Positions 1-19,369 of a stretch of DNA of 19,369 nucleotides are shown one piece after another. The position numbers and the translations under genes were made by a program. The notes under the pieces are model-generated. The model saw only the letters and a program-made list of their open reading frames with translations, had not been told where the DNA came from and did no database searches. This DNA is from a virus. The DNA lies in the IMG/VR virus record IMGVR_UViG_3300045988_082853, positions 1 to 19,369 of that record; one strand, written 5' to 3'. Numbering within the stretch: the first letter of the stretch is position 1; every line of letters begins with the position of its first letter.

Positions 1-1
1 A

Positions 2-211: not shown

Positions 212-213
212 TT

Positions 214-1119
214 ATGAAAACAGTAAATAATTGATTTAGAAATAATCCAGATTGAAAAAGTAAAATATTTATAGAACGCTATTTAAAGACAACTGGATGT
301 AATGTTATTTGGAATTCTAATCAATATTCTAAATTCGATGGATATATTGATTATAATAATAAAAGAATTCCTCTCGAACTAAAAGTGAGAGATTTATATT
401 CATTCTCTTATAAAGAAACACTTATTGATTACAAAAAATATATAAATCTAGTAAATGATAAGGGTATATTAATAGTTATATTTAAAGATTGCTTTATAAT
501 ATTTAAAGATGTAAAATCTGCTTTTAGTAATAGTCATTTTATATACTGTAGATCTACAACATCATTTGATGGATATTATGGTAACTTTAAAAAGTATTAT
601 TTAAATATTGCTAAAGGTAAAAAAGTTAATATAGATACAACTTTTTGTTATACTGGAGAAATATGAAAGAAAATTAAAGGCTATGATTATGAAGTTAGTA
701 CAAACGGTAATATTAGAAATAAGTTTGGCAAATTATTAAAACCGCATTATATAAAAGGTTATTATAATGTATGCTTATATTCTAATAAAGTTAGAAAAGA
801 ATTTATGGTACATAGATTAGTAGCTGATACATTTATTGGGATAAATTCTGAACTAGAAGTAAATCATATTAACGAAAACAAACTTGATAATAGAATTGAG
901 AACTTAGAGTGATGTGATAGAGAGTATAATATGAATTATGGAACTAGAAGCAAGAAAGTATCACAATATAATTTAGATGGATGCTTTATAAGGCAATATC
1001 CAGGAGCAGGATATGCTGCAAGAGAAGTAGGATGTTCAGCAACTACTATTAAAGATGCCTGTCGAGGAAGATTTGGGCATAATAAAGCTGTAGGATATAT
1101 GTGAGCTTATGAACAATAA
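214..1119 (+). CDS. NUMOD4/HNH homing endonuclease fused in frame, through a TGA, to a PD-(D/E)xK-like N-terminal domain (301 aa if TGA = Trp)
   Basis: ATG 214 opens a single frame to TAA 1117-1119 when the TGAs at 232, 253, 664, 910 and 1102 are read as Trp. The C-terminal half reads W(TGA)KKIKGYDYEVSTNGNIRN...VHRLVADTFI...VNHINENKLDNRIENLEW(TGA)CDREYN, the NUMOD4 plus HNH_3 signature, followed by an IENR1-like HTH (YAAREVGCSATTIKDACRG). The N-terminal ~150 aa carries FDGYIDYNNKRIPLELK (D-x13-E-x-K), a weak hint of a PD-(D/E)xK nuclease. The HNH part has no ATG of its own. Confidence 0.7.
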
Positions 1120-1411
1120 TGAAATTTTAGAAAAGTATTATCCATTTATTTTGGAATTAAAGCATAAGTTTGGAGCTAATGATGATTGTACTCAAATGAT
1201 ATGTATGGACATACTGGAAACACCTCATTCTAAACTCCAAAGTCTTCATAATAAGAATGAATTAAAATATTGAATTACCAGAGTATTTAAAAATTACTGG
1301 TTTTCTAAAAATAGTAGATATTACTATCAATATAAGAAATATTATGAGATAGTTAAGGAACCTATTGAACAGCAAATTATCGATGAAGAAAACTATGCAG
1401 AAGAAGATTAA
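1109..1411 (+). CDS. sigma-70 region-2-like protein (N-terminal half of an ECF-sized sigma factor)
   Basis: ATG 1109 overlaps the upstream gene end, and the stop is TAA 1409-1411. One TGA (1271) is read as Trp. DDCTQMICMDIL...LKYW(TGA)ITRVFKNYWFSKNSRYYY resembles sigma region 2 (DxxQ ... WLxxIxxN). Confidence 0.5.
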
Positions 1412-1643
1412 CATAGATGATATTATGGCGGAATATGATTTAGACTTTAGTATATTTACAGAGATGAATGATAGATTAATTGAAGTATATCCAAAATGGA
1501 CATCTCTAAATAAAGCCGATAAAACAGTTATGGTATTATATGCCGAATATCAAAGTTATAGAGAAGTTGGAAAGATACTTGGAATTAGCCATACAACTAT
1601 AGCAAGGGCAATAGCTAACATTAGAAATAAAATATGTGGTTAA
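1383..1643 (+). CDS. sigma-70 region-4 / HTH protein (C-terminal half of a sigma factor)
   Basis: The first ATG is at 1383 (the track starts at TTG 1365) and the stop is TAA 1641-1643. DKTVMVLYAEYQSYREVGKILGISHTTIARAIANIRNKI is a typical region-4 HTH. The ORF overlaps the previous one by 29 nt in the +1 frame. Confidence 0.6.
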   Translation: MKKTMQKKINIDDIMAEYDLDFSIFTEMNDRLIEVYPKWTSLNKADKTVMVLYAEYQSYREVGKILGISHTTIARAIANIRNKICG

Positions 1644-1773
1644 AGTATGAGATTCTATAAGAGAAATAAAAAGATGCTTGGGATATGATAATGGAACCAT
1701 TTCCAAGTTTTGTAGGAATAAAGTAAATTGGAAACATTGTTATGGGTTTATTTGGAAGTATTCTAATAATTAA
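1636..1773 (+). CDS. mini-ORF with an IENR1/NUMOD1-like HTH (possible homing-endonuclease DNA-binding remnant)
   Basis: The frame is open from 1612 to TAA 1771-1773, and the only plausible start is GTG 1636. It reads VKVW(TGA)DSIREIKRCLGYDNGTISKFCRNKVNWKHCYGFIWKYSNN, the pattern seen at C-termini of GIY-YIG/HNH homing endonucleases. The start and the reality of this ORF are uncertain. Confidence 0.3.
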
Positions 1774-1795
1774 TACTGTTATAGTTATATATACT

Positions 1796-2074
1796 ATGTC
1801 AGGAATTGATATTCCTATAAGGAAAAGATTATGAAATTACTTATATAGAGGATTACCATTTAATGAAGATTGAATGATTAAGCCTTGGGTGTGTAGTTGG
1901 TGTTTAGGCACCTGAATTGGTATAATTAGTTTATTTTGATTTGGGTTTAGTTTGCCGAACTTATTATTAGTATTGCTAGTTGCATACTATAACGACTTAA
2001 TTAAAGATATTATGATATTATTAAAAGATCTATTTAATAAGCTAATAGATTTGATTTATAAAGTCATTAACTAA
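1796..2074 (+). CDS. small membrane protein with a CxxC...W motif (DUF1360-like pattern)
   Basis: ATG 1796 to TAA 2072-2074, with four in-frame TGAs (1832, 1871, 1913, 1937). It reads ...KPWVCSWCLGTW(TGA)IGIISLFW(TGA)FGFSLPNLLLVLLVAYY, a C-x2-C-x3-W motif leading into transmembrane helices. Confidence 0.6.
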
Positions 2075-2095
2075 CAATTATATATTTTATAGAAA

Positions 2096-2416
2096 ATGAA
2101 CAAATTAACTAACGAACAGTACAATTATTTAAGCCAATTTGAAGATAGAATGCGATGCGCTCTTCATTCTAATTACTGCCGAAATATTCAGCGTAATGAT
2201 TTATTAACAATTAAAGAGATATATGAGTCTCTTATTGGCACTACTTATAAGATGTCTATGAGTTGCTCTACTTGTATGTTGAATCTAATGAAGAGAATTG
2301 CAGTGCCTTATTTTGAATATCAAAACGAATTAGCAAATGGAACAGTTACCAAAGAAAGTGGGGAGACCGAAAAAGGAAGAAGTACCACAAGAACAAATAG
2401 ACGAAAAAAAGACTAG
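2096..2416 (+). CDS. hypothetical Cys-rich protein
   Basis: Intact 106-aa ORF from the track, ending at TAG. It contains CALHSNYC and SCSTC. The last 80 nt overlap the TerS frame, and the basic C-terminal tail may be an out-of-frame artefact. Confidence 0.5.
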   Translation: MNKLTNEQYNYLSQFEDRMRCALHSNYCRNIQRNDLLTIKEIYESLIGTTYKMSMSCSTCMLNLMKRIAVPYFEYQNELANGTVTKESGETEKGRSTTRTNRRKKD

Positions 2417-2777
2417 ATACTTATATGCTGCAAAGCTATTTAATAAAGGCTGATCCAGAAATAAAGTAAGCGAAGAATTACAAGCTAAATATAATGTTAG
2501 TCAATCAACAGCTGCTCGATATATTGGTGAAGCCTATAAAATAATTGCAGATAAGAATGATAATCTTATTAAGAATCTACGTCATATACAATTAACAAGA
2601 TTGGAGACATTATTAGATATGGCACTCGCTAAAGGTGATATTAGATCTGCAAATGAGGTTATTAAAACTATAAATTCAATGTTTGGATTAAATACACCTG
2701 AAATACAAGTTAATATACAAAATAACGAATGCCAGTTTAAATTTGGAGATCCTATTTTAAATGACAAAGATATATAA
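2337..2777 (+). CDS. terS: terminase small subunit
   Basis: ATG 2337 to TAA 2775-2777, with one TGA (2451) read as Trp. The N-terminus is MEQLPKKVGRPKKEE, followed by an HTH-like AAKLFNKGW(TGA)SRNKVSEELQAKYNVSQSTAARYIGEAY and a helical oligomerisation-like tail. It lies immediately upstream of TerL and overlaps it by 17 nt. Confidence 0.7.
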
Positions 2778-4008
2778 AGGATACAGTCCATTCGTTTATC
2801 AGTTTAAAGTACATACTGCTATGAACGAATCGTATAGATCAGGTAAAGTATATACAATTAAAGCTAAACGACAAGTTGGTAAATCTTTACTTGCCGAAAA
2901 TGAACTTTTAAGATTTGCAATAAATTATCCAGGTACAGTTAATTGTATAGTTGAACCTACTTTAGGGCAATCTAGAAAGGTATTTAAGGAAATAGTTAAT
3001 GCAACAATAGACTCTGACATTATAAAGAGAAAGAATGAAACTCTTTTGGAATTAGAGTTTACTAATAATAGCTCGATACTCTTTAGATCTGGAGAACAGA
3101 TGGATTCTTTACGAGGATTCTCAGTAAGTGGATTACTTGTATTAGATGAGGCTGCTTATTTAAAAGATGAAGTATTTGAGATTATAAAGCCTACTACAGA
3201 CGTATGATCTGCTCCAATCTTAATAATCAGTACACCTAGATTTAGAGAGGGATTCTTTTATGAATGCTTTATAAAAGGACAAGATCCAAAATATGAAAAG
3301 TTTTATAAATCATTTGATTGAGCATTAGAAGATACATCTATGCTGCTTGATAAAGAGAAGCTGGAAATGTATCGATTAACTACTTCCAAAAATAAATTTA
3401 AGACTGAATATCTTGGAGAATTTGCAGACGATGATGGATGTCTATTTAATAACATATCAGAATGTATATTAAGTGAAAAACCTTCATATACAAACCTTTA
3501 TATAGGAGTAGACTGAGCAACTGGAAGTGGCAAAGACTATACTTGCGTCACTGCTTTAAATGAAAAAGGCCAAATGGTATTTATTAAATATTTTAACGAC
3601 AAAACTCCAACGGAACAGGTTGATATACTGACATCTATATTCTCTGAATATCAAGATGTTATAAAGACAGTACAAGTTGAACAGAATTCAATTGGTAGTG
3701 TTTTTTATGATCTTCTTATTAAGAAGAATCCTAAAATACATATAGTTAAGTTTTTAACTACTAATTCTTCTAAAGCTAACCTTGTTAATAAGCTACAAGC
3801 TGCATTAGAGAATGGTAAAATTGGATTATTAAAAGATGATAAACTTTTAAATGAGTTGAGGTTATATGAAGCTAGTTACAATCCGAGAACTGGAAATGTA
3901 ACATATAACGCACCATCTGGATTTAATGACGATACAGTGATTAGTCTTATGTTGGCATACGACTCTTTAAATAACACTAAAGGTAAATATAACTTAAAAT
4001 TTAAATAA
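2761..4008 (+). CDS. terL: terminase large subunit (415 aa)
   Basis: The track pieces 2761..3207 and 3574..4008 plus the stretch between them share one frame, joined by TGAs at 3205, 3319 and 3514. Motifs present are Walker A KAKRQVGKS, Walker B LLVLDEAAY, TPR coupling motif (IISTPR), and nuclease motif YIGVDW(TGA)ATGSGKDYT ... FNDDTVISLMLA. The stop is TAA. Confidence 0.9.
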
Positions 4009-4009
4009 T

Positions 4010-4669
4010 ATGAATGTAGCAACAAAATGGGAAGAAGTCTCTTTAAAGAAATATGAGGAATTAATGCAATTTATTAAAGAAAACGTTAAGATGACTGATT
4101 TAGATAGAAGTATTGAAATATATGCTATTTTATCTGATAATAGAGATGAGGCTAGAGAAGAATTATTAAATATGCCTGTAGATAATCTTGGTAAAGAGCT
4201 TTCTAAAGTGCAGTTTATTATTAATAAATACAAGAGTAAAATTCCCGATACAGAATATACGATAGATGGAAATAAATATACAGTACAGTTGAATCTTAAA
4301 AGTATGACTGCTGCTCAGTATATTGACTTTCAAAATTTCTATAAAGATTATGAACATAACATTAAATATATATTTTTATGCTTTTTAATACCAAAAGGTA
4401 AGAAATATGGAGAAGATTATGATGTAATGGAATTAGCAGATTCTTTATATGATAAAATTCCAGTAACTATTGTAACAGATATAATGATTTTTTTTTGCCG
4501 CTTATTAAAAGGCTTAACAGTAGCTACCCTAATCTCTTCAATCAGGGAGATGAAGAAGATATTGAAGAAGGAGAAGGATCCAGTGAAAAAATATCAATTA
4601 CGGAAAATGATCGTACAAGCGAGAACAACTCTGAGTTTAGTGCAAAATGAAATTGGATCTGTTGAATAG
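4010..4669 (+). CDS. tail-assembly-chaperone-like protein, zero-frame product (219 aa)
   Basis: Intact ORF ending at TAG 4667-4669. It is a helical acidic protein (KWEEVSLKKYEELMQFI...MTAAQYIDFQNFY). It contains a U9 run at 4488-4496, and a long open -1 frame follows that run. Confidence 0.6.
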   Translation: MNVATKWEEVSLKKYEELMQFIKENVKMTDLDRSIEIYAILSDNRDEAREELLNMPVDNLGKELSKVQFIINKYKSKIPDTEYTIDGNKYTVQLNLKSMTAAQYIDFQNFYKDYEHNIKYIFLCFLIPKGKKYGEDYDVMELADSLYDKIPVTIVTDIMIFFCRLLKGLTVATLISSIREMKKILKKEKDPVKKYQLRKMIVQARTTLSLVQNEIGSVE

Positions 4670-4812
4670 ACAGAGTTAGTGAAACTACTCGATTAAATTG
4701 GCATCAAGTATATGATATGCAAATAAATGAGTTCTTGAATATTATATGCTATATAATAGATAAGGGTAATGAGGAAAAACGACAAATAGAAGAATGAAAG
4801 AGACGTCATTAA
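4010..4812 (+). CDS. candidate -1 frameshift fusion product (about 267 aa; join 4010..4495, 4495..4812)
   Basis: The -1 frame is open from 4456 to TAA 4810-4812, with TGAs at 4648, 4663 and 4795 read as Trp. It encodes a protein-like sequence: ...NLFNQGDEEDIEEGEGSSEKISITENDRTSENNSEFSAKWNWICWIDRVSETTRLNWHQVYDMQINEFLNIICYIIDKGNEEKRQIEEWKRRH. A slip on U UUU UUU (4489-4495) joins the two frames. Confidence 0.45.
4488..4496 (+). promoter_or_regulatory. U9 slippery run (X XXY YYZ = U UUU UUU in the zero frame)
   Basis: Nine consecutive T at 4488-4496. The zero-frame codons are ATT TTT TTT TGC. Both the 0 and -1 frames stay open downstream, for 58 and 105 codons respectively. Confidence 0.45.
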
Positions 4813-4851
4813 AATTTAAAGTTTTTATTTTTCTTATACCTAAAAGTTACA

Positions 4852-4892
4852 AAAAAACTTGACACTTAATAGGGAGCAAATCTCCCTATTAA
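4852..4892 (+). promoter_or_regulatory. AAAAAACTTGACA motif followed by a perfect 11-bp inverted repeat (operator or RNA hairpin)
   Basis: AAAAAACTTGACA lies at 4852-4864 and is identical to 13478-13490. It is followed by TTAATAGGGAG (4866-4876), loop CAAAT, and CTCCCTATTAA (4882-4892). There is no TATAAT at N17 and no T-tract after the stem. Confidence 0.4.
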
Positions 4893-4932
4893 TGTTAGGT
4901 ACTTATATCCAATAAATTATATTTTAGAAAAA

Positions 4933-5412
4933 ATGACAAATCAAGACTTACAATTCAATAATTTGCAAGCAGTTCTAAATCAATATGGAGAACAGCTTAT
5001 TTCTTTATATAGACAAAAATTGCTTCAGACTAATACAGATGCTACTGGTACATTGGGTAACACATTAAATTATATTGTTGAAACAAATGAAGGTTTATTT
5101 GAGCTTAGTTTAAGAATTCAAGATTACTGGAAATATGTTGAAGAGGGGAGAGGTCCTGGTAAATATCCTCCAATTAATGATATTAAGAATTGGATAAGAG
5201 TAAAACCAGTTACTCCAACTATTTATAATGAAAAGTTACCAACTATAGATCAACTTGCTTATTTAATTGCAAGAAAGATTCATTTAAGGGGTACCAGAGG
5301 AAAATATTTATTACAAGCTTCATTAGATGAATTATCGGTATTCGATTTATTAGATGAAGCTATTACAAAAGATTTAGAAATTCAAGTTAATAATGTATTT
5401 AAAAATTTTTAA
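4933..5412 (+). CDS. HK97-gp10-like head-tail / tail-completion protein
   Basis: Intact 159-aa ORF ending at TAA. ATGTLGNTLNYIVETNEGLFELSLRIQDYWKYVEEGRGPGKYPP resembles the tG.L..s....YA.yVE.G core of the HK97 gp10 family. Confidence 0.55.
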   Translation: MTNQDLQFNNLQAVLNQYGEQLISLYRQKLLQTNTDATGTLGNTLNYIVETNEGLFELSLRIQDYWKYVEEGRGPGKYPPINDIKNWIRVKPVTPTIYNEKLPTIDQLAYLIARKIHLRGTRGKYLLQASLDELSVFDLLDEAITKDLEIQVNNVFKNF

Positions 5413-5415
5413 AAT

Positions 5416-7602
5416 ATGGCAGAATTAACACCTTCAAAGTTAGGAATTAACTCTACAGGTACTTTTAAGGTTTATTATAGTGCTGGTCAAATGGCAACTA
5501 ATGGTACTTATGATAACCTTTATTTATATCCTGAAGTTGCAGGTTTAAGTGGAACTATTACAGATCAAACAACTTCTGGCTGTACTATTAATATTACGAA
5601 TACAGCAGCTATTACTCAAGATCAGAATGTTACTTGTTCCTTCTCAGTAAATAATGACATTACAAAACCTGCAATTGTAAATTTCCCAATAAGACTGCAT
5701 AAAGATGCAGAAGGATTTTATCCAGATACAAGAACAATAACTGTACCAAATACTGGAGGAAGTTATACAGTAACTTTACAAACTAACTACGCAAATATTA
5801 AAAAATGAGATGTATCTGTTACAAGAGCAGACGCATTAGCAACAGTTACAGTATTAGATTTTGATTCATCTTATGTTAAATTTAAAATAGATGTTTCTGA
5901 AAATACGGAATGAACAGAAGATTTAACTGGAAGTATTGGTATAATTGGAATTAATACTAGTAATAGACGCATTGGTTGAAGATACTTATTTACAATTGCT
6001 AAATCAGATACACCTTCAGATTTAAATTTAATAGTTACTCCAGCTTCTGCAAATTATGATGCTGCTTTAATAGTTACAAATAAATTTTATTTAACTACTA
6101 CAAAAACGGAAGAGACTATTTCATCATTTAATGTTGTATGTAGTCAAGCAAGTAATATATTAAATAATACTGAAGATAATTCTTTTATTTTAACTTTACC
6201 TGAAAACGATACAGTAAATGATTTATCATTTGATGCATCAGTAACTGCACAAACATCTGGAGGATATACAATTAAAGCAACAGTACCTATTACTCAAAGT
6301 AAAACCTACTTGACTTTACCTGTTACAAATTATGATATAAGTTATTCTCAAAGTACATTAACTATTAATGGATTAAGTTCAAATAATATTAGTGCTAGTG
6401 ATGTAGTATTTGCAATTCCAGAAGATGCACAATCTTGAATAAGCTCTCCTAAATTTACATATAATAATGGAAACGCAATAATTACTTTTAATGTTACTGA
6501 AAATACTAGTTTATCAAGAAGAAATACTACAATCGGTATATCTGTAGTTAAAAATAGTAGTAGTATTATTAACTTATCTATAAATGTAAATCAAGCTGTT
6601 AAATCAGATATATCTCCGATTTGGAAAGATTATATTTGGGCTGAGGAAACCTTAGATGACTTTATAGAGTATCATTTAGATGATGGAGGAACTACAATTT
6701 ATGCAGGAAAAGCATATAAGTATCCAGGTGCAGATAGAGTAGAATTCTTATTAAATAGTGTAACTGAGAATTATTTATCTAATGGAATTTCATTCCCAAC
6801 TACATTAAGTACAAGCATTATGCCTAATTACTTGAAAGACTTTACTTTAGTAACCTCAACTGGAAATGAGAAGCCAATTATATTCTTTAATGACTGGTCT
6901 TATAAAGATACAGATTTAACAAGCGGATACTTCTTGAGCGATCCAATTACTGGCTTAATTGATCCAAGACAATATGTAATGGCAAGTTGGATATTACCTA
7001 CTGGAGAAGGTTTAGTTAATAGGTTCTTTTATAAAGATGGAGTTCAAAATGTAATTGATGTTACTTTAAGAAGTGGTATTAATGGTTATACATTTGTTGA
7101 GAATATAACTAATCTGCAATTAGGTTGTGGAGATTATATAGTTATAGCGTTTGTAGTTTCTGGAACTATTAGTCAAAAGCAAATTAAATATACAATAGAT
7201 AATACTGGAAAAGATTACGTTCTGTATTATGTAAATGCAGCTGGAGGATGGGATTCATTATTAATTGAAGGTAATGTTAAAAAGACTGATGAATTTGAAT
7301 CTGAGAGCTATATAAAACGAGTATTGAGACCCTCAACAGAGTTTGCAAGAAATAAATACCTGAATACTATTACTTCCAGTTGGACTTTATATACAGGTTA
7401 TTTAAATGATGAACAAGCATCTAAAATGTATAATCTGTTAGAATCTACTCAAGTATATTTACATAACCTTAAAGATAATACAATTACTCCAGTACTGATT
7501 ACAGATACAAGTTGTGAGTATAAGACTTATACAAATCAAGGTAAGAATAAGTTCTATTACACAATTAATGTAGAATCATCACAAGACAATTATAGAAAAT
7601 AA
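5416..7602 (+). CDS. tail/baseplate protein (728 aa): N-terminal Ig/BACON-like beta-sandwich repeats plus a distal-tail-like C-terminal domain
   Basis: Track pieces 5416..5808 and 6820..7602 share one frame. The interval between them has no TAA or TAG, and TGAs lie at 5806, 5911, 5977 and 6436. Repeated modules read ...GGSYTVTLQTNYANIKKW(TGA)DVSV... and ...AQSW(TGA)ISSPKFTYNNGNAIITFNVTENTSLSRRNTTIGISV (BACON-like W...N...R pattern). The C-terminal domain includes YVLYYVNAAGGWDSLLIEGN. The stop is TAA. Confidence 0.75.
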
Positions 7603-7603
7603 T

Positions 7604-10600
7604 ATGCGCAAAAATATCAAACTATTTATTGCAAATCAAGAGGTTGACTGTAGTGAGGGAATTAGTCTTCCTATGACTTATACAGTTGAGGATTTCCAAA
7701 ACCCCACTATAGTCAAAAACTCTTTCAGTAAGACGATTTCTATCCCTGGAACAAAGAATAACAACAAAATATTTGGAGAAATTTATAAGTTGGATAGATT
7801 GCTTCATATTAAAGATGGTAATATATCTGGAATTTACTTTGATCCATCTAAACGAGTAGATTTCCAAATTTATAATAATAGCTATTTAGTTGAATCTGGA
7901 TATATGCAATTAAATAGTATATCTATAAATAAAGCTGTAATTACCTATAATATTACTTTATATGGAGGTTTAGGTGATTTCTTCTATGGTCTTAAATATA
8001 AAGAAGACGGAGAAATTAGAACTCTTGCTGATTTACAGTACTTTATAACAGATGAAAATGGTAATTTATTACCAGAAGATGAAGAGATGAATTTCACAAT
8101 TAACAAGGATTTTGTAGATAAATGTTTTAGTTATCCTAATGTAAATAACAACGCAAACACTATTTATGACTTTGTTACTTTTACTCCAGCTTATAACGGT
8201 TTATATGATAACTTTGATAATGAGACTTGTTTAATTAACACTAATGGAACAAGTTTATTCCCAACAAGCGCAACAGATTCTGGCAATACATATACTCCTT
8301 ATAATGGCTATGCTTTAGCATCTTTAAATAAAGCATATACAGAATGGGAAATGAGAGATTTAAGAAGTTATATGCAAAGACCTGCAATTAAGCTTTCTAA
8401 ACTTATAGAGACTATTTGCAGAAAAGAGAACTCTGGATACGATGTAATATTCTATAATTCATTCTTTAATAGTTCTAATCCTTATTGGGATAAGACTTAT
8501 GTAGCTCTTCCTTTACTTGGGTCAAATTCTGATGAGGGAGAAGAGTCTATTACAGAGAATGCTCAATTACAGAAATATAATGATAAATTCTGGTGCGGAT
8601 TACAACCTGGAGGAAGTACTACTTCAGTAAATACTGGTATTTTTACAGTAGCTGGAAGTACAGCTATAGTTCCAGGTGAAAATGGAGTGATTAATTTAAG
8701 TGGAATTCCTGCAAGTGCATTGTCAGATATAGATCTTCCAGTACAGCTTGTATTTAATGCAAATACCTCAACTTCTGTAAATGATCTGTATTTAAGCTAT
8801 GTTTTAAATGGTAAGTTAGGAAATACTGAATATAGAAATCATCCTTATAGAACATCTGTAACATTACAATTACTTGTTTATAATGCAGATGAAAGTCCAA
8901 TTGGAAGAAAACCTATAGCATATTCATCGTTATATAACTTTACAAATTCTATACAAGGTCAAAGTCCTGCAGGTCCAAATACTTGGTTTAATTATTATCC
9001 TTTAACTGATGCAAAGGTAGAGACTATATTAGGTAACTTTAAAAAGTATCAAGATAAGTTATATACGTTTACTTCACAAACAGGAGGAGGTAATGTATTT
9101 CATTTAACAGTTACAGACATTCCAAAAGTAGAAAATATATCTATTTATCTACAAGTAGCAAGAAGAACAGAGAGTCTTTATAATCAAGATGTAATGTGGG
9201 GATCAAACAATATGAGACCTGGAACTACTGGAAATTATGCAGTAGCTGGATGGTCTGAAGTATTATTTGATGATGAAAATTATTCATTAACAGCTTCTTG
9301 GGCGTCCTCTATAGCTTCAGAAACTATCATAACTAAATCTACATTACTTAGAACAGAAAACTCTCCAGCAGACTTCTTATTAAGTTACGCAAAACTATTT
9401 GGTTTATACTTTAGTAAGGATATAGATTCAAAGACAATTAGGATATATACAAGAAATAACTTCTTTAAAGACAAGATTAACGATTGGTCTGATAGAATAG
9501 ACTATTCTCAAGATATAACGGTAAATCCTTTGTTATTTGATAAGAAATGGTATACAATGGCTTTAGAGACTCCAGAAACATATTATGCTAATAAATACGA
9601 TAAACAGTATGATATAACTTATGGACAGCAAAGACTTGATACTGGATATAACTTTAACTCAGATAATACTGATTTATATTCAGATAACATTTATGAAAAC
9701 GTTGTATCTGCAAGAGATGTAGATAAATACTTTAGAAACTTCTATAATTCAAGCAACGTATCTGTTCCTGCATTTATGAATGACAACATTACATATAGCT
9801 TATATAGAACTGTAAGTAATGAAAGAACATCATACGATCAAGATTTATATGGAGCTAACTTTATAGATGTATCTAAAACAGTAGAATGGTGAAATGTTCC
9901 AGGTAATGACATATTTGCCAAAAACTGCTTCTATTCATTAGATAATGCTGAGCAGAGCCTTGAAGAGATTGAATCTGCTTTAGTTATGTATAATGGAGAT
10001 GTAGCTATGAATGATATGAATGGTAATCCAATTGAATATTGAATTACTGATGATATAGCTGAAATGGCTTTATTAAATGATGGAGAAAACTGCTTCTTAT
10101 ATACAGCGAGTGAAACAGATAGTTCTGGTAAAAAGATAGCTATTAAAAGAACTACTTTACCTCAGTTTGTAAGATACGTAGATTCAAGTAATTATGTAAC
10201 TGCTTCATTAGATTTTGGACTTCCAAGAGAGATATATGTAGATAAAATTAAATATGATGAAGATAGTACTATTTACTACCAATTCTGGAGAGCATTCTAT
10301 AATGATCAATTTGATGTAAATACCAAAAAAGTTACTTGCTATGTAAAGATGAATGATTTGGACATCAAGTATGATTTATTAAGAGAATTCTATTATTTTG
10401 ATTCTGCTTATTGGATTCTTAATAAGATAGACTCTTATGACATTAATTCAGATGCAACTACAAGATGTGAGTTTATAAAGGTGCAAAATGTAACTAACTA
10501 CTTATATGGAATTCCAGAATTAGGTGATTACATTATAATGACTCCAAATAATATAGAGGTTCCTTATACAGCAGGTACTACAACTATTCAGGTATCATCT

Positions 10601-11059: not shown

Positions 11060-11061
11060 TT

Positions 11062-13374
11062 ATGGCAGAAGAAATTAAAAAGGTTATCACAATCGATACT
11101 GCCAAAGGTTCAAAGTCGATCAAGCAGCTACGAGAAGAAGTAGCTGGCTTGACGGCTGAACTTGAAGATCTTGAAATTGGCAGTAGTGATTATTCTAAAA
11201 AACTTGAAGACTTAGTAACTGTACAGAATAAATTAACAGTAGCTACTGAGTCAATGCAAGGAAAGACTGTAAACGCAGTTAAAGCATTTGATAGTATAAA
11301 TCAAGTTGCTGGTGGATTAGCTGGAGGAGTTTCGGCTGTCAGTGCTGCATTTACTTTATTTGGAAAAGATACAGAGAATCTTGAAAAAACTATGGTAAAG
11401 CTTCAAGCAGCTATAGCAATAGTTCAAGGTATTGGTGGATTAAAAGGACTTGGAGAAGGTGTACTTAATGGAGTTAAAGCATTTAAGGCATTAGCTGTTT
11501 CAATGGGTACTGCTACTACTGCAACTGGAGGTTTATCTGTAGCAATGGGAGTATTAAGAACAGCGATTATTTCAACAGGTATAGGTGCATTAGTTGTAGC
11601 TTTAGGAATGTTAGTAGATTGAGCAATTAAAGCTGCATCAAGTACCAATGACCTTAAAGATAGTATCGCTGATTTAAATGATGCTACTGATGTTTGAGGA
11701 ACAAAATATGCTGATGCGAATACTCAAATAGCTGCATTAGATAGAAAAAGAGAACGAGAGTTAGCTGAAGGTAAGAAAAGTGAAATTCAAATATGAAAAG
11801 ATTATGCCGATGCTATATGACAAATAGGTGCAGAACTATGATCAGATTTTGGAGAGGTACAAAAACAATACAATAAAGGATTTATACAATTACTTCAAGG
11901 TAATAAAAAGTTTAGAAAAGAGTTTAAAGCATCTAATTTAGGTAACTGGGAAGATTTTGCTTCAGCTGTACAATGAGGGTTAAAAACAAGTTCTAATTAT
12001 ATAGATGAGTTTAATTCTAAATTAAGTGATGAAGAAAAGACTCAATATGAAGAGTTAAAATCAACATACGAAACTTATTTAGAAAAACGAAACGCTAGTA
12101 TGCAAAAATCTGCAGAACTTTATGAAAAAGTAAAGTTAATGGAGATTGCTGCAGACAGAAAGGCAAGAGAAAAAGCTATTGCTGAATATAATAAGAAAAA
12201 AGATGCATTTAAAGAACATATAAAAGAGTTATTAAAATTCATAGAAACGTTCAATAAAGAAAATAGACGAATTCTATTAACAGACGAAGCTAGAGAGGAA
12301 GAAGATATAAATGTTAAATATCAAAAACAATTAGACGCTCTAACAGAAGCTAAAAATCTTGAATTAATAACAACAGAAAAATATAATGAAAAATTAAATT
12401 TACTTAATAAAGCCTATTCTAAAGAATATGTAGATCTTTATACAGATAGATACAGGAAAGAGATTGAAGATAGAATGAACTCTCTAGAAGAATTAAGAGC
12501 AAAAGAAAATCTATTTTTCGATCAAAGACAATCTGAATTAGATACTAAGTATAATAAAACTTATACTCATAATGCTGGATTAGGTAATACATTTAAAACA
12601 GCAGGAGATATAAAAAATGAACGAAAAGATAGAATTGATAGAGCTAATGACACTCTTGGTTTAAAATTAGATTTTTTTGAGAGAGATAATAAACGTATAG
12701 ATCAATTACAAAAAACTTTAAAAGAATCATTTGATAATGGTTTAATAACTCAAGAAGAATATAATAACGAGTATGCAAGATTAAATGCAGAAAGAGAAGC
12801 TAATGATACTGCAGCTAAAAATGCTATAGTTGCTAATAGCGAGGAAATTAAACAAGCTAAAAAAGATGAAATTAAAGATATTGTAGCGGCAGTACAAGGA
12901 AGTTTCTCAGCATTAGGTACTTTAGGAGACGCTATTGCCGAAACTTATAAATTTGAAGCTAATAACTCAAAGAAATCTTTAAAGGAAAGAGAGGCGGCTT
13001 TAGATAATTACAAAACTATAGCAAAAATATCTACTGTATTTAATACTGCTTCTGCAGCTATGAGTGCATATAATTCTATGGCAGGAATTCCTGTAGTTGG
13101 ACCTGTACTTGGTGGTATAGCTGCAGCTGCTGCAATTGCTATGGGTATCTTGCAGATTAAAAATATTGATAATGAAGAGCTTAGTAACACTTCAGGAGCT
13201 TCTACATCAGCACCATCTGCATTAAATACAATGCCAGTTGAATATACTCGGAACTTACTTGGAGATAAAGAAACAGACCAACTTAACAATCCAATTAAAT
13301 GTTATGTTGTTGAATCTGACATTACAAATGCACAGACTAAAGTGGCAGTTACTGAGTCTAATGCAAGTTTCTAA
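11062..13374 (+). CDS. tape-measure-like protein (770 aa)
   Basis: Track pieces 11062..11622 and 12100..13374 share one frame, joined by six TGAs (11620, 11695, 11794, 11818, 11839, 11974). Long Lys/Glu-rich coiled-coil stretches are flanked by Gly/Ala-rich hydrophobic segments (AGGLAGGVSAVSAAFTLFG, GIGALVVALGMLV, GIPVVGPVLGGIAAAAAIAMGIL). The stop is TAA. Confidence 0.7.
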
Positions 13375-13477
13375 AGTGAGTAAATTATTGACAGCCTACT
13401 ATGTAAGTTACTGTAAATCAGTGCTTATATAGTAGTGCAATGTCAAAATTTTATTTATCTTAGATACCTGTGTGAGT

Positions 13478-13513
13478 AAAAAACTTGACAGTTATATTCT
13501 ATATAAATATAAT
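13478..13513 (+). promoter_or_regulatory. consensus sigma-70-type promoter of the head module
   Basis: TTGACA lies at 13485-13490, followed by a 17-nt spacer and TATAAT at 13508-13513. It is preceded by an A6 tract and sits in the largest intergenic gap, 58 nt upstream of ATG 13572. Confidence 0.6.
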
Positions 13514-13571
13514 TTATTAAAAGATTGTAAAAAATATTACATTTTTCTAACTAACTATATATTAATAAAAA

Positions 13572-14165
13572 ATGGAAAATATGTATAACGAACTGCCACT
13601 ATATCAAGCAGTAATAACTGACGATTTTGATGGCATAGAATATGTAGCTTTAACATCAAAGCCAGCTACTCAAGTAAACTGGGTTGCATTTAATAACTCT
13701 TTGAAATTCTCTATGGATGAAGATCAACATATTGTAACTTCTTGTTTAATGGTATGTGATATGCCAATTTTTAGACGAGACGACAATTTGGGAGAATATT
13801 ATATCCAATATGATAAAGAGACTTTAAGAGTAATGGCTGAGAAGATGATGAGGGATAAGAGAACTGATGCTGTTAATATAGAGCATTTAGAAGATTCTTC
13901 GATTCCTGGAATTGTACTACAAGAACTTTACATTAAAGATGAGAAACGAGGAATTTCTCCAATAGAATTCAAAGATGTGCCCGATGGTTCTTTATTTGTA
14001 ACTTACAAAATAAATAATCCTATTATTTGGGATGCTATTAAAGCAGGAAAGTTTAAAGGCTTCTCTATTGAAGGCTTATTTACTTTAGAACGTAAGGATG
14101 ATGAATATACAGAACTTAAAGAGATACAAAGAATGTTGAAGAAGATAAAACGAATTAAAAAGTAA
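13572..14165 (+). CDS. XkdF-like putative prohead serine protease
   Basis: Intact 197-aa ORF. VNIEHLEDSSIPGIVLQELYI...DGSLFVTYKINNPIIWDAIKAGKFKGFSIEG matches the pattern of the PBSX XkdF family (Peptidase_S78_2). It lies directly upstream of the scaffold and capsid genes. Confidence 0.6.
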   Translation: MENMYNELPLYQAVITDDFDGIEYVALTSKPATQVNWVAFNNSLKFSMDEDQHIVTSCLMVCDMPIFRRDDNLGEYYIQYDKETLRVMAEKMMRDKRTDAVNIEHLEDSSIPGIVLQELYIKDEKRGISPIEFKDVPDGSLFVTYKINNPIIWDAIKAGKFKGFSIEGLFTLERKDDEYTELKEIQRMLKKIKRIKK

Positions 14166-14168
14166 ACT

Positions 14169-14780
14169 ATGAGCAAATTCACTAAAATCAAATTAGAGCT
14201 TGCCAAAATGTTGGCAAAATTCAGTGACATCAAAACTGACAAAGCCGTCTTAACTTGGGATTCTGACGAAGATCTTAAAGCTGGAATGGATGTTTATGTA
14301 ATGGATGAGAATGGCGAATACGCTCCTGCTGCTGATGGTGATTATGTTACCGAAGATGGTAAAACTATCGTAGTTAAGGAAGGTCGCGTTGAATCAATTA
14401 CTGATCCTAAAGCTGAAGTAGATCCAGAGGAAGGAATGAGCACTGTTGAGGTAGCTGCTGCTTGCGGAACTAAGAAAGTAAACGCTGCTGAGGAAGAAGT
14501 TGCAGATCCTATGGTTCAAACCGATGGTGTTAAAGAAAGTGAAACCGATGCCATTGATGCAATTCATAGAGAGATTAATGAGCTTTATGACATTGTAGAC
14601 AAACTTACAAAGAAGGTTGCCGAGCTTGAAGCAAAAGGAACTGAAACAAAAGAGACTGTTGAGAAAATGAGCAAAATGAGTGCTGCTTTCTCTGCAGAAG
14701 AAGAGATTGAAACAAAGCGTACTACTCCTACAAGTGGCAATGCAGAAATAGATAGAAAGCTTAAAAACTTTATTGGTTAA
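14169..14780 (+). CDS. scaffolding protein
   Basis: Intact 203-aa ORF that is strongly acidic with a coiled-coil segment (REINELYDIVDKLTKKVAELEAKGTETKETVEKM). It sits between the protease and the major capsid gene. Confidence 0.6.
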   Translation: MSKFTKIKLELAKMLAKFSDIKTDKAVLTWDSDEDLKAGMDVYVMDENGEYAPAADGDYVTEDGKTIVVKEGRVESITDPKAEVDPEEGMSTVEVAAACGTKKVNAAEEEVADPMVQTDGVKESETDAIDAIHREINELYDIVDKLTKKVAELEAKGTETKETVEKMSKMSAAFSAEEEIETKRTTPTSGNAEIDRKLKNFIG

Positions 14781-14801
14781 TAATTTAAAAATTAATAAAA
14801 T

Positions 14802-15701
14802 ATGAATCCTGTAATGACTTCTTTGACTGCTTATGTTGAGCAGCGTAGATTACCTCTTATTAAAGAGGCTGTATTAAAAGCTAAGAGTGCTAGTTTATTT
14901 AACTTACAGACTGATATCAAAACTTCAGCTGCTCTTAACTTACTTTCAACTGATGTTGAATTTGGAGATGGTCTGACTTGTGGATGGGATGAGGCTGGAA
15001 CGCAGACTCTTTCACAACGAGTTCTTACGACTGGAAATATCAAGATTAATATGGCTTATTGCGACAAAGCTATGCTTAAATATTGGACTCAGTATCAGGT
15101 TCGCGTTGCTGCTGGTCAGAAAACGCTTCCTTTCGAAGAGGACTTTATTAGTAGTGTAGTTGAGAATGTTAAAGCCGCTATTGAAACCGCTATCTGGCAA
15201 GGTGATACTAGTTCTAGTACGAACAACCTTAAATATTTCGATGGTCTGTTAAAGATCTTAAAAGATGCTGATGGTACTGTTGATGTAACGATTACTGGTA
15301 CTTCTGCTTACGATGACATTATGGCTGTTTATAACGCTATTCCTGAGAAAGTACTTGATGGTGCTTCTATCTTAGTAGGCGCTGATACCTTCCGTAAATT
15401 TGTACAGGAGTTAGTTGCTAAGAACTACTTCCATTATAGTGGTGAGAATCTTAACGGTGAGATTATGCTTCCTGGTTCGCAGGTTAAAGTAATCGCTGTT
15501 AATGGTCTTAACGGAACTGACAAGATCGTTGCTGGTCAGCTTGACAAGAACTTCTTCTATGGCTGCGATATGATGAATGACGAAGAGAAATTCGAAATGT
15601 GGTATTCGCAGGATTTCAGAGAATTTAGATTAGCTGTTGAATTTAACGCTGGTGTACAGATTGCATTCCCTGACGAAGTAGTATTAGGTGCTAAAGCTTA
15701 A
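14802..15701 (+). CDS. major capsid protein (HK97-fold type, 299 aa)
   Basis: Intact ORF. The pattern ...VENVKAAIETAIWQGDTSSSTNNLKYFDGLLKIL... and the position after protease and scaffold are typical of Phage_capsid-type MCPs. GC content is higher and codon choice is biased (GCT/GGT/CGT). Confidence 0.85.
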   Translation: MNPVMTSLTAYVEQRRLPLIKEAVLKAKSASLFNLQTDIKTSAALNLLSTDVEFGDGLTCGWDEAGTQTLSQRVLTTGNIKINMAYCDKAMLKYWTQYQVRVAAGQKTLPFEEDFISSVVENVKAAIETAIWQGDTSSSTNNLKYFDGLLKILKDADGTVDVTITGTSAYDDIMAVYNAIPEKVLDGASILVGADTFRKFVQELVAKNYFHYSGENLNGEIMLPGSQVKVIAVNGLNGTDKIVAGQLDKNFFYGCDMMNDEEKFEMWYSQDFREFRLAVEFNAGVQIAFPDEVVLGAKA

Positions 15702-15741
15702 TTTCAATAGAAACGTTTAACTTTAAATAGTAATTGAAATT

Positions 15742-16260
15742 ATGGCTTGCTTAATAACGCTTAATGGAATTACACTTGATTGCCAGCCTTCGTTAGGTGG
15801 TATCAAACGAGTTTGGATTACTCAATATTCAGATGTAAAATCTGTAGTTGTAGGTGACGACAATATGATTGAAAGTATCACTTTAGAGGGTGAAGCTCAA
15901 TGGTATGAGTATCAGTTCCGTAAGGCTACTGGTTCTTTAACCTCAACTCTGAATGTTGACGAATCCGCAGGAGTTAACTATGTAAGCAATGAGTTAGCTC
16001 TTGTATTTACAAAGATGGAAACTGCTAAGAGAATTGAAATTGCAGCTTTATCGATTGGTCAGCTTGCAGTTGTTGTTGAGGATAGTAATGGTCATTACTG
16101 GTTCCTTGGTAAAGATGATTATGTAAGCGCTTCTGCAGGTACTGGTATTACTGGTACAGCAAAAGGTGATCAGAATGCTTATACTCTGACTCTCTCTACT
16201 GATTCGGATTCTTATCCTTATGAGTTGTCAGCAGAAGCTATTGCTGCAATAGTTGGATAA
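15742..16260 (+). CDS. putative major tail (tube) protein, or another abundant virion protein
   Basis: Intact 172-aa ORF. GGIKRVWITQ...VVVEDSNGHYWFLGKDDYVSASAGTGITGTAKGDQNAYTLTL resembles siphophage tube proteins. It shares the biased composition of the MCP gene and is followed by a strong terminator. Confidence 0.5.
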   Translation: MACLITLNGITLDCQPSLGGIKRVWITQYSDVKSVVVGDDNMIESITLEGEAQWYEYQFRKATGSLTSTLNVDESAGVNYVSNELALVFTKMETAKRIEIAALSIGQLAVVVEDSNGHYWFLGKDDYVSASAGTGITGTAKGDQNAYTLTLSTDSDSYPYELSAEAIAAIVG

Positions 16261-16267
16261 TCAGATT

Positions 16268-16306
16268 AAGAGCGGGTAATTAATTTTACTCGCTCTTATT
16301 TTGTTT
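16268..16306 (+). terminator. rho-independent terminator closing the head module
   Basis: AAGAGCGGGTAA (16268-16279), loop TTAATT, and TTACTCGCTCTT (16286-16297) form a 12-bp stem with one G-U pair. ATTTTGTTT follows immediately, 8 nt after the TAA of the preceding gene. Confidence 0.75.
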
Positions 16307-16335
16307 ATAGACATTAATAATAAAAATTATATAAT

Positions 16336-17490
16336 ATGGCAATTAAATTTACAACACAACCTGTTGCAAAGAATGCAACTTTGAGAGGTTTAGATAGCCT
16401 AAGTGCTGCAGAATGCAAACTTCAGGATAAGACAGTTGAATATGTAGAAAATTCACAATACGAAATATTACCAGATGAAGGATACGATGGAATAGCAAAG
16501 GTTGACGTAACAGTAAATGTACCAATTCCAGAACCTAAATTACAGAGCAAGAATTACAACATTGTAACTAATGGAGATACAACTATTACTCCTGACGAAG
16601 GTTTTGTTGGAATTAATGGAGGTACTATTAGTGTAAACGTTCCTACTCCAGCGCCTAATTTACAAGAGAAATCTACGACTATTAGTCAGAATGGTGCTTC
16701 TAGTGTTACGCCAGATTCTGGCTATGATGGTCTTTCTAGAGTAGATATTACTGTACAAGTTCCAGAACAGACTATACAAGCTAACAAGACTGTATCTATT
16801 ACAACTAATGGACAAACTATTGTATCCCCTGATCCAAATAATGATGGTATGGCTCAGGTAACTGTAGATGTTAATGTATCTGGAAGTGGAGGAGTTCCAG
16901 CTTATATTCCTAATGAGCCACAGAGTGTTACAGAAATATCTAATAGTGAGATAAATACAGTAGTTCCTATGAATTATGTAGTAAATGAATCTGTTCAAGA
17001 TTTACAGGGTTCATTTTTATTAAATGCTCCAGAACTAGAATTTGTACATTTAATTACTCCTTCTAGCAATTTATTTCGTAGTATAAATTACTTCTTAGGA
17101 AGTACAAATAAAGTAAAATGGGTAACTTTATCTAATACAAGATATGTAACTGATTTTAGTCTTTCGTTTGTAGGATGTCAACAACTAGAATATTTAGGGC
17201 CTTTAGATATGACTAATGCTACTGAGGTTAACTTAATGTTGCCTACTTCTATGAGTACTGTAAATAAAACAAGATTTGGAGGTTTTTATAATCTTAGTCT
17301 TGATCTAGATTTAAGTGCATTAGATATTCCAGATGAATCTGTGTGAGCTATTTTATATAGTATCAAAGATATGACTGGAGATTCTCAACGAACTTTAAAA
17401 TTCAGTTACAATACTTATAGCAATAATGAATACGATTGAAGTTCTTATACAGAATTTGCATCTACAAAGAATTGGGCATTATCTTACTAA
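16336..17490 (+). CDS. fibre / receptor-binding-like protein with four tandem ~40-aa repeats (384 aa)
   Basis: Track ORF 16336..17346 continues in frame through TGAs at 17344 and 17437 to TAA 17488-17490. The C-terminal part (FLLNAPELEFVHLITPSSNLF...VGCQQLEYLGPLDMTNATEVNLMLP) looks like a leucine-rich repeat. Confidence 0.75.
16417..16884 (+). repeat. four tandem coding repeats, period about 120 nt (40 aa)
   Basis: The four units are KLQDKTVEYVENSQYEILPDEGYDGIAKVDVTVNVPIPEP, KLQSKNYNIVTNGDTTITPDEGFVGINGGTISVNVPTPAP, NLQEKSTTISQNGASSVTPDSGYDGLSRVDITVQVPEQT and IQANKTVSITTNGQTIVSPDPNNDGMAQVTVDVNVSGSG. Confidence 0.7.
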
Positions 17491-17502
17491 AACTTTATAA
17501 TT

Positions 17503-17739
17503 ATGAAAATAGAAAAGACTGAAAAATTTCAAACAGTAAAACCTGACGAGAATATGGTTCTTACTAAATATAATGACGGAGATAAAATAGAGGGATATAT
17601 GTCTTATAGAGCTTATATGTGTCCATTAGATACAGATCTTAGTATTTTAAAAGAAATCTCTGTTGAAAAAGATGCAGAATATCTAAAACTTAAAAAAGAA
17701 GCTATTGAAGCTGTTATTAAATCTAAAATGATAAAATAA
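17503..17739 (+). CDS. small hypothetical protein between the fibre genes (possible fibre assembly factor)
   Basis: Intact 78-aa ORF whose stop overlaps the next start (ATAATG). No family recognised. Confidence 0.5.
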   Translation: MKIEKTEKFQTVKPDENMVLTKYNDGDKIEGYMSYRAYMCPLDTDLSILKEISVEKDAEYLKLKKEAIEAVIKSKMIK

Positions 17740-19369
17740 TGGAAAATCTATTACCCTATTTAAATGTACTTGAGGCAGACACTATTACAAGGGATAACGT
17801 AACCAAAGCCTTAGTAATAGATAAAGATGATAATATAGCTCTTTTAAATGGAGAAGATTTAGGAACTAATAATTATCAAGATCTGCAAAATAAGCCAGAA
17901 ATAAACGAAATATCTTTAAATGGGAATCTTACTGCAAGTGAGTTAGGATTAGCATCTACTAGCGATATACCTACTAAAACTAGTCAATTGACTAATGATA
18001 GTGGGTATATTACTAGCTTAGATGGATATGCTACAGAGGAATGAGTAAATAGTCAAGGATTTGCTACTAATGAATCTGTTACTGAAGGTTTAGCTGGAAA
18101 ACAAGATGAATTAGTTGAAGGTAATGGAATCAATATATCTGGAAATACTATATCTGCTGATTATAGTTCAATAGATAATAAGCCATCTTTAAATGGTAAG
18201 ACTTTGGAAGCCTCAACGAACATAGTTCCAGCAATACAGGTTCAAGCAATACCTACTAAATTGACTATTGCTCCCTCTTTAGGCAATCAAACTGGACAAG
18301 CAGTTGAACTTCCTGGATATGATACAAGTACTAATGCTTCTGGTATTTTAACATCTCAAGTATTTGGTATTCTTAATGATAAGTATACTAAAGAAGAAAT
18401 AGACAATATTAACAGTGCAATTAACACAGCTATTTCTAAAAAACAAGATAAATTAACAGCAGGAGCCAATATACGAATTGTAGATAACGTTATATCTGCA
18501 TTTAATAATCATTTATTCTTACATTTAGATGAAAATGATACAGAACATCAAGCTTATGTATATTCTTTTATTAAGTCTAATTTAGAGTTCTATTTATTTG
18601 CTGAGATAACTTATGAAGGCAAAGTAGTAGTTCTTCCTTTAGTTGCCATTGAAAACAACGAATCATTAGATTTAAAAGGAATGTATCTTAAAGATGATTC
18701 TACAATCGTTGAGGTATCTGCAGTTTTAGTAGCTAATGGTAACATAAGTGTAAATACTTCTGAAATATCAATATCTGGAGGTAGTGGAGGAACTAGCGAT
18801 TATAATCAATTAACAAATAAGCCACAGATTAATTCAGTAGAATTGTCTGGAAATAAAACCCTTGCTGATCTTGGTATTCAAGCTGCTGGAGATTATGCTA
18901 CTACTTCTGATTTGGCATTAAAAGCAGATAAAAGTACAGTTGATACATTACAAGAGCAAGTAACTAGTAATACCTCTGCAATTGCTACTAAACAGGATAT
19001 TCTTGTTAGTGGAGAATCAATTAGAACAATTAACAATCTTTCTTTATTAGGGGAAGGTAATATTAATGTAGGCGATGTTCCTTCTATTACAGTAGAAAAT
19101 GAGCAAATACCAAATGAGACAGATTTTAATAGAGTTGCAGAAGCTGCGGCAAATAATAGAGTTGTTTTAATTAGAATTAAAACTACTGAAATGACGTTAA
19201 CCTCTAATTATTGACAGTATGCCTCTTCAGAATCTCAGAGACTCTTTATTGCTTATGCAACATATTTATCAGGAACTAATAACATAACTCTGATGGCATA
19301 TATTATAGAAAATCAACCAGTTATGGTAGAAACTTATGATAAAGAATTACAAGAAGAGTTAGTTTCTGG
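17739..19369 (+). CDS. tail fibre protein (partial; runs off the 3' end of the window)
   Basis: Track pieces 17739..18044 and 18204..19214 and the remaining sequence share one frame, joined by TGAs at 18042 and 19212. A recurring fibre motif is present: YQDLQNKPEINEISLNGN, YSSIDNKPSLNGKTL, DYNQLTNKPQINSVELSGNKTLADLG. Also present are EEW(TGA)VNSQGFATNESVTEGLAGKQDEL and coiled segments (KADKSTVDTLQEQVTSNTSAIATKQD). Confidence 0.8.

Follow-up and report, generated by a model that had tools for sequence, protein, structure and literature searches.

The viral record IMGVR_UViG_3300045988_082853 in IMG/VR is a contig of 19,369 nucleotides (nt), referred to here as the window and analyzed over its whole length. 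It comprises about two-thirds of a ~31-kb tailed phage of human gut origin, complete relatives of which extend beyond it. All long open reading frames (ORFs) lie on the plus strand, among them genes for a homing endonuclease, the terminase large subunit (TerL), a tape measure protein, a prohead protease, the major capsid protein (MCP), and a tail fiber (Table 1). When TAA and TAG are taken as the only stop codons, plus-strand ORFs of at least 60 amino acids total 6436 amino acids out of a maximum of approximately 6456, and 21 ORFs tile the window. Under the standard code (code 11), the same strand yields 22 fragmented ORFs of that minimum length totaling 4840 amino acids, and recoding TAG instead gives 5489. 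Recalling genes under alternative codes therefore favors the proposal, made in a preliminary description of the contig from its letters alone, that TGA is reassigned to tryptophan throughout. The 21 ORFs contain 33 in-frame TGA and 44 TGG codons, slightly below the hand counts of about 34 and 46 given there, and the six positions that it singled out (910, 1271, 1913, 3514, 5806, and 6436) are all in-frame TGAs. Each frame continues without TAA or TAG across every TGA, as had been claimed, with no change of frame. The terminator is TAA for eighteen ORFs and TAG for two (2096-2416 and 4010-4669, each overlapped by the next ORF), as also described; one is open at the contig end, and none uses TGA as a terminator. 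Because noncoding plus-strand frames meet a TAA or TAG once per ~11 to 12 codons, chance is excluded as the source of ~6300 codons that hold neither and yet hold 33 TGAs.

Homologues reveal which amino acid is specified. The TGA at 3514 corresponds to TerL residue 252, an invariant tryptophan in an alignment of 27 homologues, the most distant of which are 48% identical. The window's TGA sites are mostly occupied by TGA or TGG, and otherwise by Tyr or Phe codons, in 35 related IMG/VR loci, where the window's TGG codons are often TGA. Across 21 related genomes, TGA and TGG interchange at a fraction of 0.29 of conserved tryptophan sites, compared with 0.34 for A/G interchange at conserved Lys, Glu, and Gln sites; because the swap rate is close to that of synonymous A/G changes, TGA behaves as a near-synonymous tryptophan codon. 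In standard-code syntenic relatives, the residue at the TGA sites is Trp in 38% of cases, Phe in 14%, Tyr in 7.5%, and Gly in 1 of 120, a profile resembling that at TGG sites (Trp 48%, Tyr 18%, Phe 9%). Distant standard-code TerL genes likewise have TGG or Phe codons opposite the window's TGAs, with Gly in at most 2 of ~83 cases. Homologue alignment, which had been suggested as a check, returned mainly Trp, Phe, and Tyr, with Gly nearly absent. These sequence comparisons confirm that this clade reads TGA as tryptophan (translation table 4), with genes ending at TAA and rarely at TAG.

Individual genes add detail. In the homing endonuclease ORF, the Pfam matches to NUMOD4 and HNH_3 extend over the TGAs at 664 and 910, and the codons aligned to 664, 910, and 1102 in relatives are TGG, TGA, or TAY. 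Terminase_6N (residues 37 to 231) and Terminase_6C (residues 248 to 401) together run across the three TGAs of TerL, homologues of the full 415-amino-acid protein exist, and distant TerLs also align over their entire length. At site 1271, 25 relatives have TGG and 6 have TGA, with Tyr or Phe in standard-code relatives; at site 2451, 29 have TGG and 3 have TGA; and position 1913 is Trp in all six standard-code relatives. Sites 4663 and 4795 are TGA in 31 of 31 relatives, and the TGAs near C termini (1102 and 4795) sit in conserved tryptophan motifs with TGA or TGG in relatives. Among TGG codons, that at 1497 has TGA as its counterpart in 26 relatives, and several of the 14 in the 1151-amino-acid tail protein are TGA in relatives. 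A glycine reading (table 25), the code of phages that infect Gracilibacteria and Absconditabacteria, has a negligible chance, since a single TGA site (11818, where the tape measure protein is poorly conserved) aligns with GGA or GGT in some relatives, against the near absence of Gly noted above, the invariant W252, and the exchange with TGG. Equally negligible is the idea that the TGAs are true stops in decayed, misassembled, or fragmented genes, or sites of rare read-through or selenocysteine: only their bare presence speaks for it, while frames stay open across them, family domains span them, dozens of independent assemblies keep them or swap them with TGG, and 33 sites in 11 genes are incompatible with decoding dependent on a selenocysteine insertion sequence. 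Together, these observations exclude glycine, pseudogenes, selenocysteine, and occasional read-through.

TABLE 1 Features of the window, with TGA:TGG counts summed over the phage family; the last five rows are family genes without window coordinates
Feature	Coordinates	Strand	In-frame TGA in window	Basis or remark	TGA:TGG, family-wide
Small ORF	41-211	+	none	ORF call	
Homing endonuclease (N-terminal nuclease-like domain, NUMOD4, HNH_3, NUMOD1)	214-1119	+	232, 253, 664, 910, 1102	Pfam, PHROG matches	
Small protein without family match	1109-1411	+	1271		
Helix-turn-helix/sigma-70 region 4-like protein	1365-1643	+	none	HTH_50, E 2.4e-8; weak Sigma70_r4 match	
Small membrane protein with CxxC motif	1742-2074	+	1832, 1871, 1913, 1937		
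ORF	2096-2416	+	none	TAG end	
Gene upstream of TerL, candidate small terminase subunit	2337-2777	+	2451		
TerL, 415 amino acids	2761-4008	+	3205, 3319, 3514	Terminase_6N, Terminase_6C	31:35
ORF	4010-4669	+	none	TAG end	2:30
Conserved Trp-rich ORF	4495-4812	+	4648, 4663, 4795	Overlaps end of 4010-4669	61:34
ORF	4933-5412	+	none	ORF call	22:24
728-amino-acid structural protein, immunoglobulin (Ig)/BACON-like repeats	5416-7602	+	5806, 5911, 5977, 6436		
1151-amino-acid tail protein	7604-11059	+	9890, 10040		
Tape measure protein	11062-13374	+	11620, 11695, 11794, 11818, 11839, 11974	PHROG matches	34:21
TGA-free block	13572-16260	+	none	Four genes, 10 TGG	
Prohead protease, S78-type	13572-14165	+	none	Peptidase_S78_2 match	7:36
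Scaffold-like protein	14169-14780	+	none		0:17
MCP	14802-15701	+	none	nr relatives 90-92% identical named "Major capsid protein"	0:88
172-amino-acid protein, capsid neighbor	15742-16260	+	none		1:65
384-amino-acid Ig-like repeat protein	16336-17490	+	17344, 17437	Weak Big_9 match	
ORF	17503-17739	+	none	ORF call	
Tail fiber, open at contig end	17739-19369	+	18042, 19212	PHROG search	16:1
Tail-fiber module common to large crAss-like phages	18986-19369	+	19212		
575-amino-acid helicase gene	1179-2906 of relative L001	-			0:80
Portal					12:78
Membrane/lysis-region protein					59:55
Endolysin					25:37
HNH and GIY-YIG endonuclease genes				TGA share 0.56-0.70	

Queries with TerL, capsid, and portal retrieved dozens of IMG/VR contigs of 27 to 33.6 kb, most of them from one gut collection, with TerL proteins 78 to 99% identical to that of the window. 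Merging overlapping loci gave 21 near-complete genomes. One complete relative measures 30,953 nt and is 91 to 99% identical to the window; no integrase was seen in it, and its intergenic regions lie at about 670-1179, 2906-3393, and 30342-111. The phage carries a gene set for virion, packaging, and lysis, the relatives encoding a Peptidase_M15_3 endolysin. More distant syntenic relatives (TerL identity of 34 to 49%) use the standard code, and two of these lie on 189-kb and 587-kb contigs of a metagenome-assembled genome of Bacteroides sp. Two further syntenic relatives, L170 and L172, are recoded at TAG, with 10 and 6 in-frame TAGs in their TerL genes. A single syntenic family thus holds all three codes (standard, TAG-recoded, and TGA-recoded), a situation described within several clades by Borges et al. 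(10.1101/2021.08.26.457843).

The family uses TGA sparingly. Codons were counted in 22 genomes, which are related, so that the totals of 742 TGA and 1359 TGG are not phylogenetically independent; TGA makes up 0.35 of tryptophan codons, versus 0.72 A-ending codons in the other two-fold A/G pairs, about half the use that composition predicts. The mixed usage had already been remarked on as atypical of a long-adapted genome, and the family-wide figures uphold this. Use also differs strongly between genes: TGA is absent from the MCP, the scaffold, and a helicase gene on the opposite strand, and it predominates in the tail fiber and tape measure genes and is common in membrane/lysis and terminase genes. 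Homing endonuclease genes are among the most TGA-rich of the family. Recoded phages tend to concentrate the recoded codon in late or lysis genes and to lack it in early ones; the helicase (0:80) and the membrane/lysis-region protein (59:55) conform to this, but the MCP (0:88), the scaffold (0:17), and the TGA-carrying putative regulators do not. The nucleotide following TGA is T at a frequency of 0.15, versus 0.25 after TGG. A U at the +4 position strengthens termination, so this depletion suggests residual competition with release factor 2 (RF2). The capsid module (13572-16260) has a GC content of 0.36 to 0.385, compared with about 0.28 to 0.30, and only 0.42 of its codons of the A/G kind end in A. 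In the helicase gene, 0.74 of the other codons of this kind end in A. Because composition differs in the capsid genes and not in the helicase gene, the exclusion of TGA from the capsid is the weaker of the two results. At the protein level, the module is 98% identical to that of a genome whose TerL is 80% identical, so it appears to be swapped among lineages.

The helicase gene is the sole gene on the opposite strand and lies just to the left of the window in complete relatives. Its product has a generic superfamily 2 helicase fold with no tie to translation (Foldseek with an AlphaFold model, predicted local distance difference test score of 81); sequence searches of Pfam, PHROG, and PDB gave no match. 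The helicase family is large and also occurs in Bacteroidota-type integrative elements, and homologues are found in elements with Arm-DNA-bind_5/Phage_int_SAM_5 integrases and BACON-domain neighbors. The gene is free of the recoded stop both in the TGA clade and in L238, a TAG-recoded prophage that neighbors an intact integrase gene on a standard-code contig of 132 kb. We considered L238 as a member of the family and rejected it, the helicase gene being all that is shared; we retain it as a parallel.

By indirect evidence, the host is probably a bacterium that uses the standard code, most likely a member of the Bacteroidota. The endolysin of the relatives argues for a host with peptidoglycan and not a Mollicute, and the constrained use of TGA also points to the standard code. 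Assignment to the Bacteroidota draws on the absence of a Shine-Dalgarno motif before any of 31 gene starts, the relatives on Bacteroides contigs, the context of the helicase elements, and a tail-fiber module shared with crAss-like phages.

Searches for decoding machinery were negative within their scope. ARAGORN, which detected a positive control with a UCA anticodon, found no tRNA in the window and ~70 loci or in 97 merged related contigs (1.58 Mb, including complete 31-kb genomes), and none with relaxed settings in the complete relative; Rfam gave none at an E value of ≤1 in the window and the complete 30,953-nt relative. No release factor or tryptophanyl-tRNA synthetase matched among the scanned ORFs. 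These results agree with the earlier statement that no suppressor tRNA or release factor gene is visible in the window. The rest of the contig, where a scan had been recommended, does not exist, the window being the entire contig: the longest contig recorded for its exact capsid protein measures 19,369 nt. The complete relatives were scanned in its stead and yielded neither kind of gene. Stop-codon-recoded phages are indeed known, as had been stated, and a missing suppressor is common among them: a suppressor tRNA is detectable in just 35% of code 4 phage genomes (Borges et al., 10.1101/2021.08.26.457843), and Yutin et al. (PMC7886860) met the same mismatch in tRNA-less recoded phages and suggested host-encoded or very divergent suppressors. 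Recoded genes make up 26 to 71% in phages of standard-code hosts and ~90% in code 25 phages on code 25 hosts (Borges et al., 10.1101/2021.08.26.457843). With TGA in 11 of its 21 ORFs, the window falls inside the former range.

The reading that we prefer, and hold to be quite probable, is that TGA encodes tryptophan and genes end at TAA or TAG in a standard-code host, where TGA would be decoded by costly suppression against RF2 and not as part of the native code of the cell. It is because the host appears to use the standard code that decoding is taken to be suppression of this kind. Translation would take place in a cell that still holds RF2, in one of three ways. The near-cognate tRNA-Trp(CCA) of the host may read UGA after a putative phage factor has lowered RF2 competition; a suppressor tRNA(UCA) may be supplied in trans; or the phage genome may hold a suppressor too divergent to be detected. 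The TGA-free helicase could be translated immediately by an unmodified host, with most other genes presumably needing TGA decoding, and the absence of TGA from the capsid, scaffold, and neighboring genes would be consistent with selection that disfavors an inefficient codon where virion proteins are made in the largest amounts.

Several observations weigh against this reading, in addition to the relatedness of the genomes behind the codon counts. We found no phage-encoded candidate that would act on RF2 or tRNA-Trp. Neither CRISPR (clustered regularly interspaced short palindromic repeats) spacers nor an integrated copy of the clade links it directly to a host, and the hosts predicted for opal-recoded Zeta crAss-like phages vary, including Parabacteroides but also the Firmicutes Holdemanella and Faecalibacillus (PMC12386605). 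That the capsid module avoids TGA may be due in part to its own composition and mosaic origin. Putative regulators upstream of TerL carry TGA in 9 and 17 of 22 genomes, so that decoding may be needed early, which would fit a host that already reads TGA.

Such a host, itself using table 4 and reading TGA as tryptophan, with the phage merely mirroring it and needing no suppressor, is the main rival explanation, although we consider it unlikely. It would account for complete genomes without tRNA genes and for the spread of TGA over most gene classes, the putative regulators included, and a second, unrelated phage of the crAss-like type, described below, that shares a module with this one is also TGA-recoded, with a TGA share of 0.70. 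A native codon would not be expected at half the rate set by composition, shut out of the MCP (0:88) and helicase (0:80) genes, and depleted of a following T. The endolysin implies peptidoglycan, unlike in Mollicutes, the Shine-Dalgarno motif is lacking, and syntenic relatives sit in standard-code Bacteroides contigs or are recoded at TAG. No table 4 member of the Bacteroidota and no walled gut bacterium with that code is known, which counts against the idea as well.

The module in question occupies 384 nt at the right end of the window (18986-19369) and is 94.5 to 97.9% identical in nucleotides to 12 contigs of 85 to 168 kb whose TerL is crAss-like. An example of the large crAss-like genomes is IMGVR_UViG_3300029720_000001 (168,085 nt). 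ORFs cover 0.45 to 0.57 of these large phages under code 11 and 0.80 to 0.98 under code 4; TGA accounts for 0.70 of their tryptophan codons, versus 0.35 in the 31-kb family, and all 11 aligned large-phage copies have TGA opposite the window's codon at 19212. The closest 31-kb relative lacks the segment. No other segment is shared, and the small phage falls outside the Crassvirales, which have a crAss-type TerL, portal, and MCP and genomes of ~100 to 190 kb: its TerL is of the Terminase_6 type and its relatives measure ~31 kb. As the module is a receptor-binding one, the small phage and the large crAss-like phage probably share a host. The contig break at 19369 probably arose because the segment is repeated in two phages of the same sample, and IMGVR_UViG_3300045988_175865 (148,631 nt) is an assembly chimera in which the shared tail-fiber module connects a large crAss-like phage with a near-complete 31-kb phage. 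We considered that contig as a prophage in host DNA and rejected the idea, the upstream part consisting of TGA-rich tail genes of a crAss-like phage.

These findings raise the prospect of a code hitchhiker, a phage that obtains its suppressor tRNA in trans from a coinfecting large TGA-recoded crAss-like phage or another resident element. We regard this as rather improbable. The near-identical module and the chimera, which implies occurrence in the same sample, are in its favor, as are the presence of tRNA-SUP-TCA in some opal-recoded Zeta crAss-like phages (PMC12386605) and the suggestion by Yutin et al. (PMC7886860) of host-encoded or undetected suppressors. However, the ~30 kb of the large phage that was searched, including the 10 kb upstream of its TerL, yielded no tRNA, and its contigs are absent among the matches listed when viral contigs were scanned for an anticodon loop like that of an opal suppressor together with a T arm; two gut matches among those listed proved on checking to be ordinary tRNAs. 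The small phage, with its full set of virion, packaging, and lysis genes, also looks autonomous, and obligatory coinfection would be a heavy constraint. If it were nevertheless true, the genetic code would bind a small phage to coinfection with a crAss-like helper, and its half-adapted use of TGA and TGA-free helicase and capsid genes would reflect life with and without that helper.

Much of what this family displays has been published for other phages, namely TGA-to-tryptophan recoding in gut phages, small recoded genomes, genomes without a suppressor, and code switches between close relatives, and both IMG/VR and nr already contain relatives of the phage. Compared by their published description, the small clades of Borges et al. 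2022 (Garnet and Amethyst, both of ~34 kb, and Topaz of ~22 kb), in which codes 11, 15, and 4 are mixed, match this family in genome size, gut origin, three codes within one syntenic family, absence of the recoded codon from one early-type gene, and many genomes without a detectable suppressor tRNA. Unlike in those clades, the MCP and scaffold genes are TGA-free here, and no integrase accompanies the complete relative. The Zeta crAss-like phages (Lera, PMC12386605; Yutin et al. 2021, PMC7886860) share TGA-to-tryptophan recoding, gut origin, low GC content, many homing endonucleases, and a near-identical tail-fiber segment; their genomes are 145 to 190 kb with many tRNAs, some including tRNA-SUP-TCA, in contrast to the ~31 kb, Terminase_6 TerL, and lack of detected tRNAs here. 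Phages of table 4 Mycoplasma and Spiroplasma hosts also read TGA as tryptophan, and there no phage suppressor is needed; this family differs in its peptidoglycan endolysin, lack of Shine-Dalgarno motifs, relatives on Bacteroides contigs, underuse of TGA, and exclusion of TGA from the most expressed genes. Like the table 25 phages of Absconditabacteria and Gracilibacteria, the phage has in-frame TGA in most genes and no TGA terminators, but the aligned residues are Trp, Phe, and Tyr where those phages have Gly. For annotators, the contig should be called with table 4. What the family adds is a well-sampled recoded group of ~31 kb, with dozens of near-complete genomes, no detectable suppressor tRNA, TGA-free genes, relatives on all three codes, and a recent tail-fiber exchange with a large TGA-recoded crAss-like phage. 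A code-switch factor has little room to hide in so small a genome, which makes the family a convenient system for studying how stop codons are read without a phage tRNA.

The remaining genes can be described briefly. Homing endonucleases are abundant in the family: additional HNH or GIY-YIG genes of relatives flank the portal gene, separate tail genes from one another, and lie in the interval from tape measure to protease. In the window, one ORF of 301 amino acids combines a nuclease-like N-terminal domain with an HNH domain and corresponds to two genes in relatives. ORF 1109-1411, in which the preliminary description saw a sigma region 2, matches no family. The "BACON-like" modules it noted in the 728-amino-acid protein do give a BACON match (residues 335 to 394), but one below threshold (E value of 0.0047, 17.3 bits versus a cutoff of 25). 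The gene at 2337-2777 is possibly the small terminase subunit, judging by its position alone. The nearest GenBank phage matches of TerL are Halorubrum, Thermus, and Meiothermus phages, all distant; neither megablast with the whole window nor tblastn with the capsid protein gave a match among GenBank phages, nor did a PDB sequence search with the capsid protein. The Trp-rich ORF at 4495-4812 overlaps the preceding gene by at least 22 nt in the -1 frame, and no ATG precedes the part of it that is conserved. We do not claim a -1 frameshift at the A6 run at 4586-4591 that would join it to ORF 4010-4669, as the run is not conserved in relatives. Finally, cumulative GC skew climbs monotonically from 1 to 19369, with all genes of the window on one strand, a pattern in the sequence that is consistent with unidirectional replication and transcription over this part of the genome.

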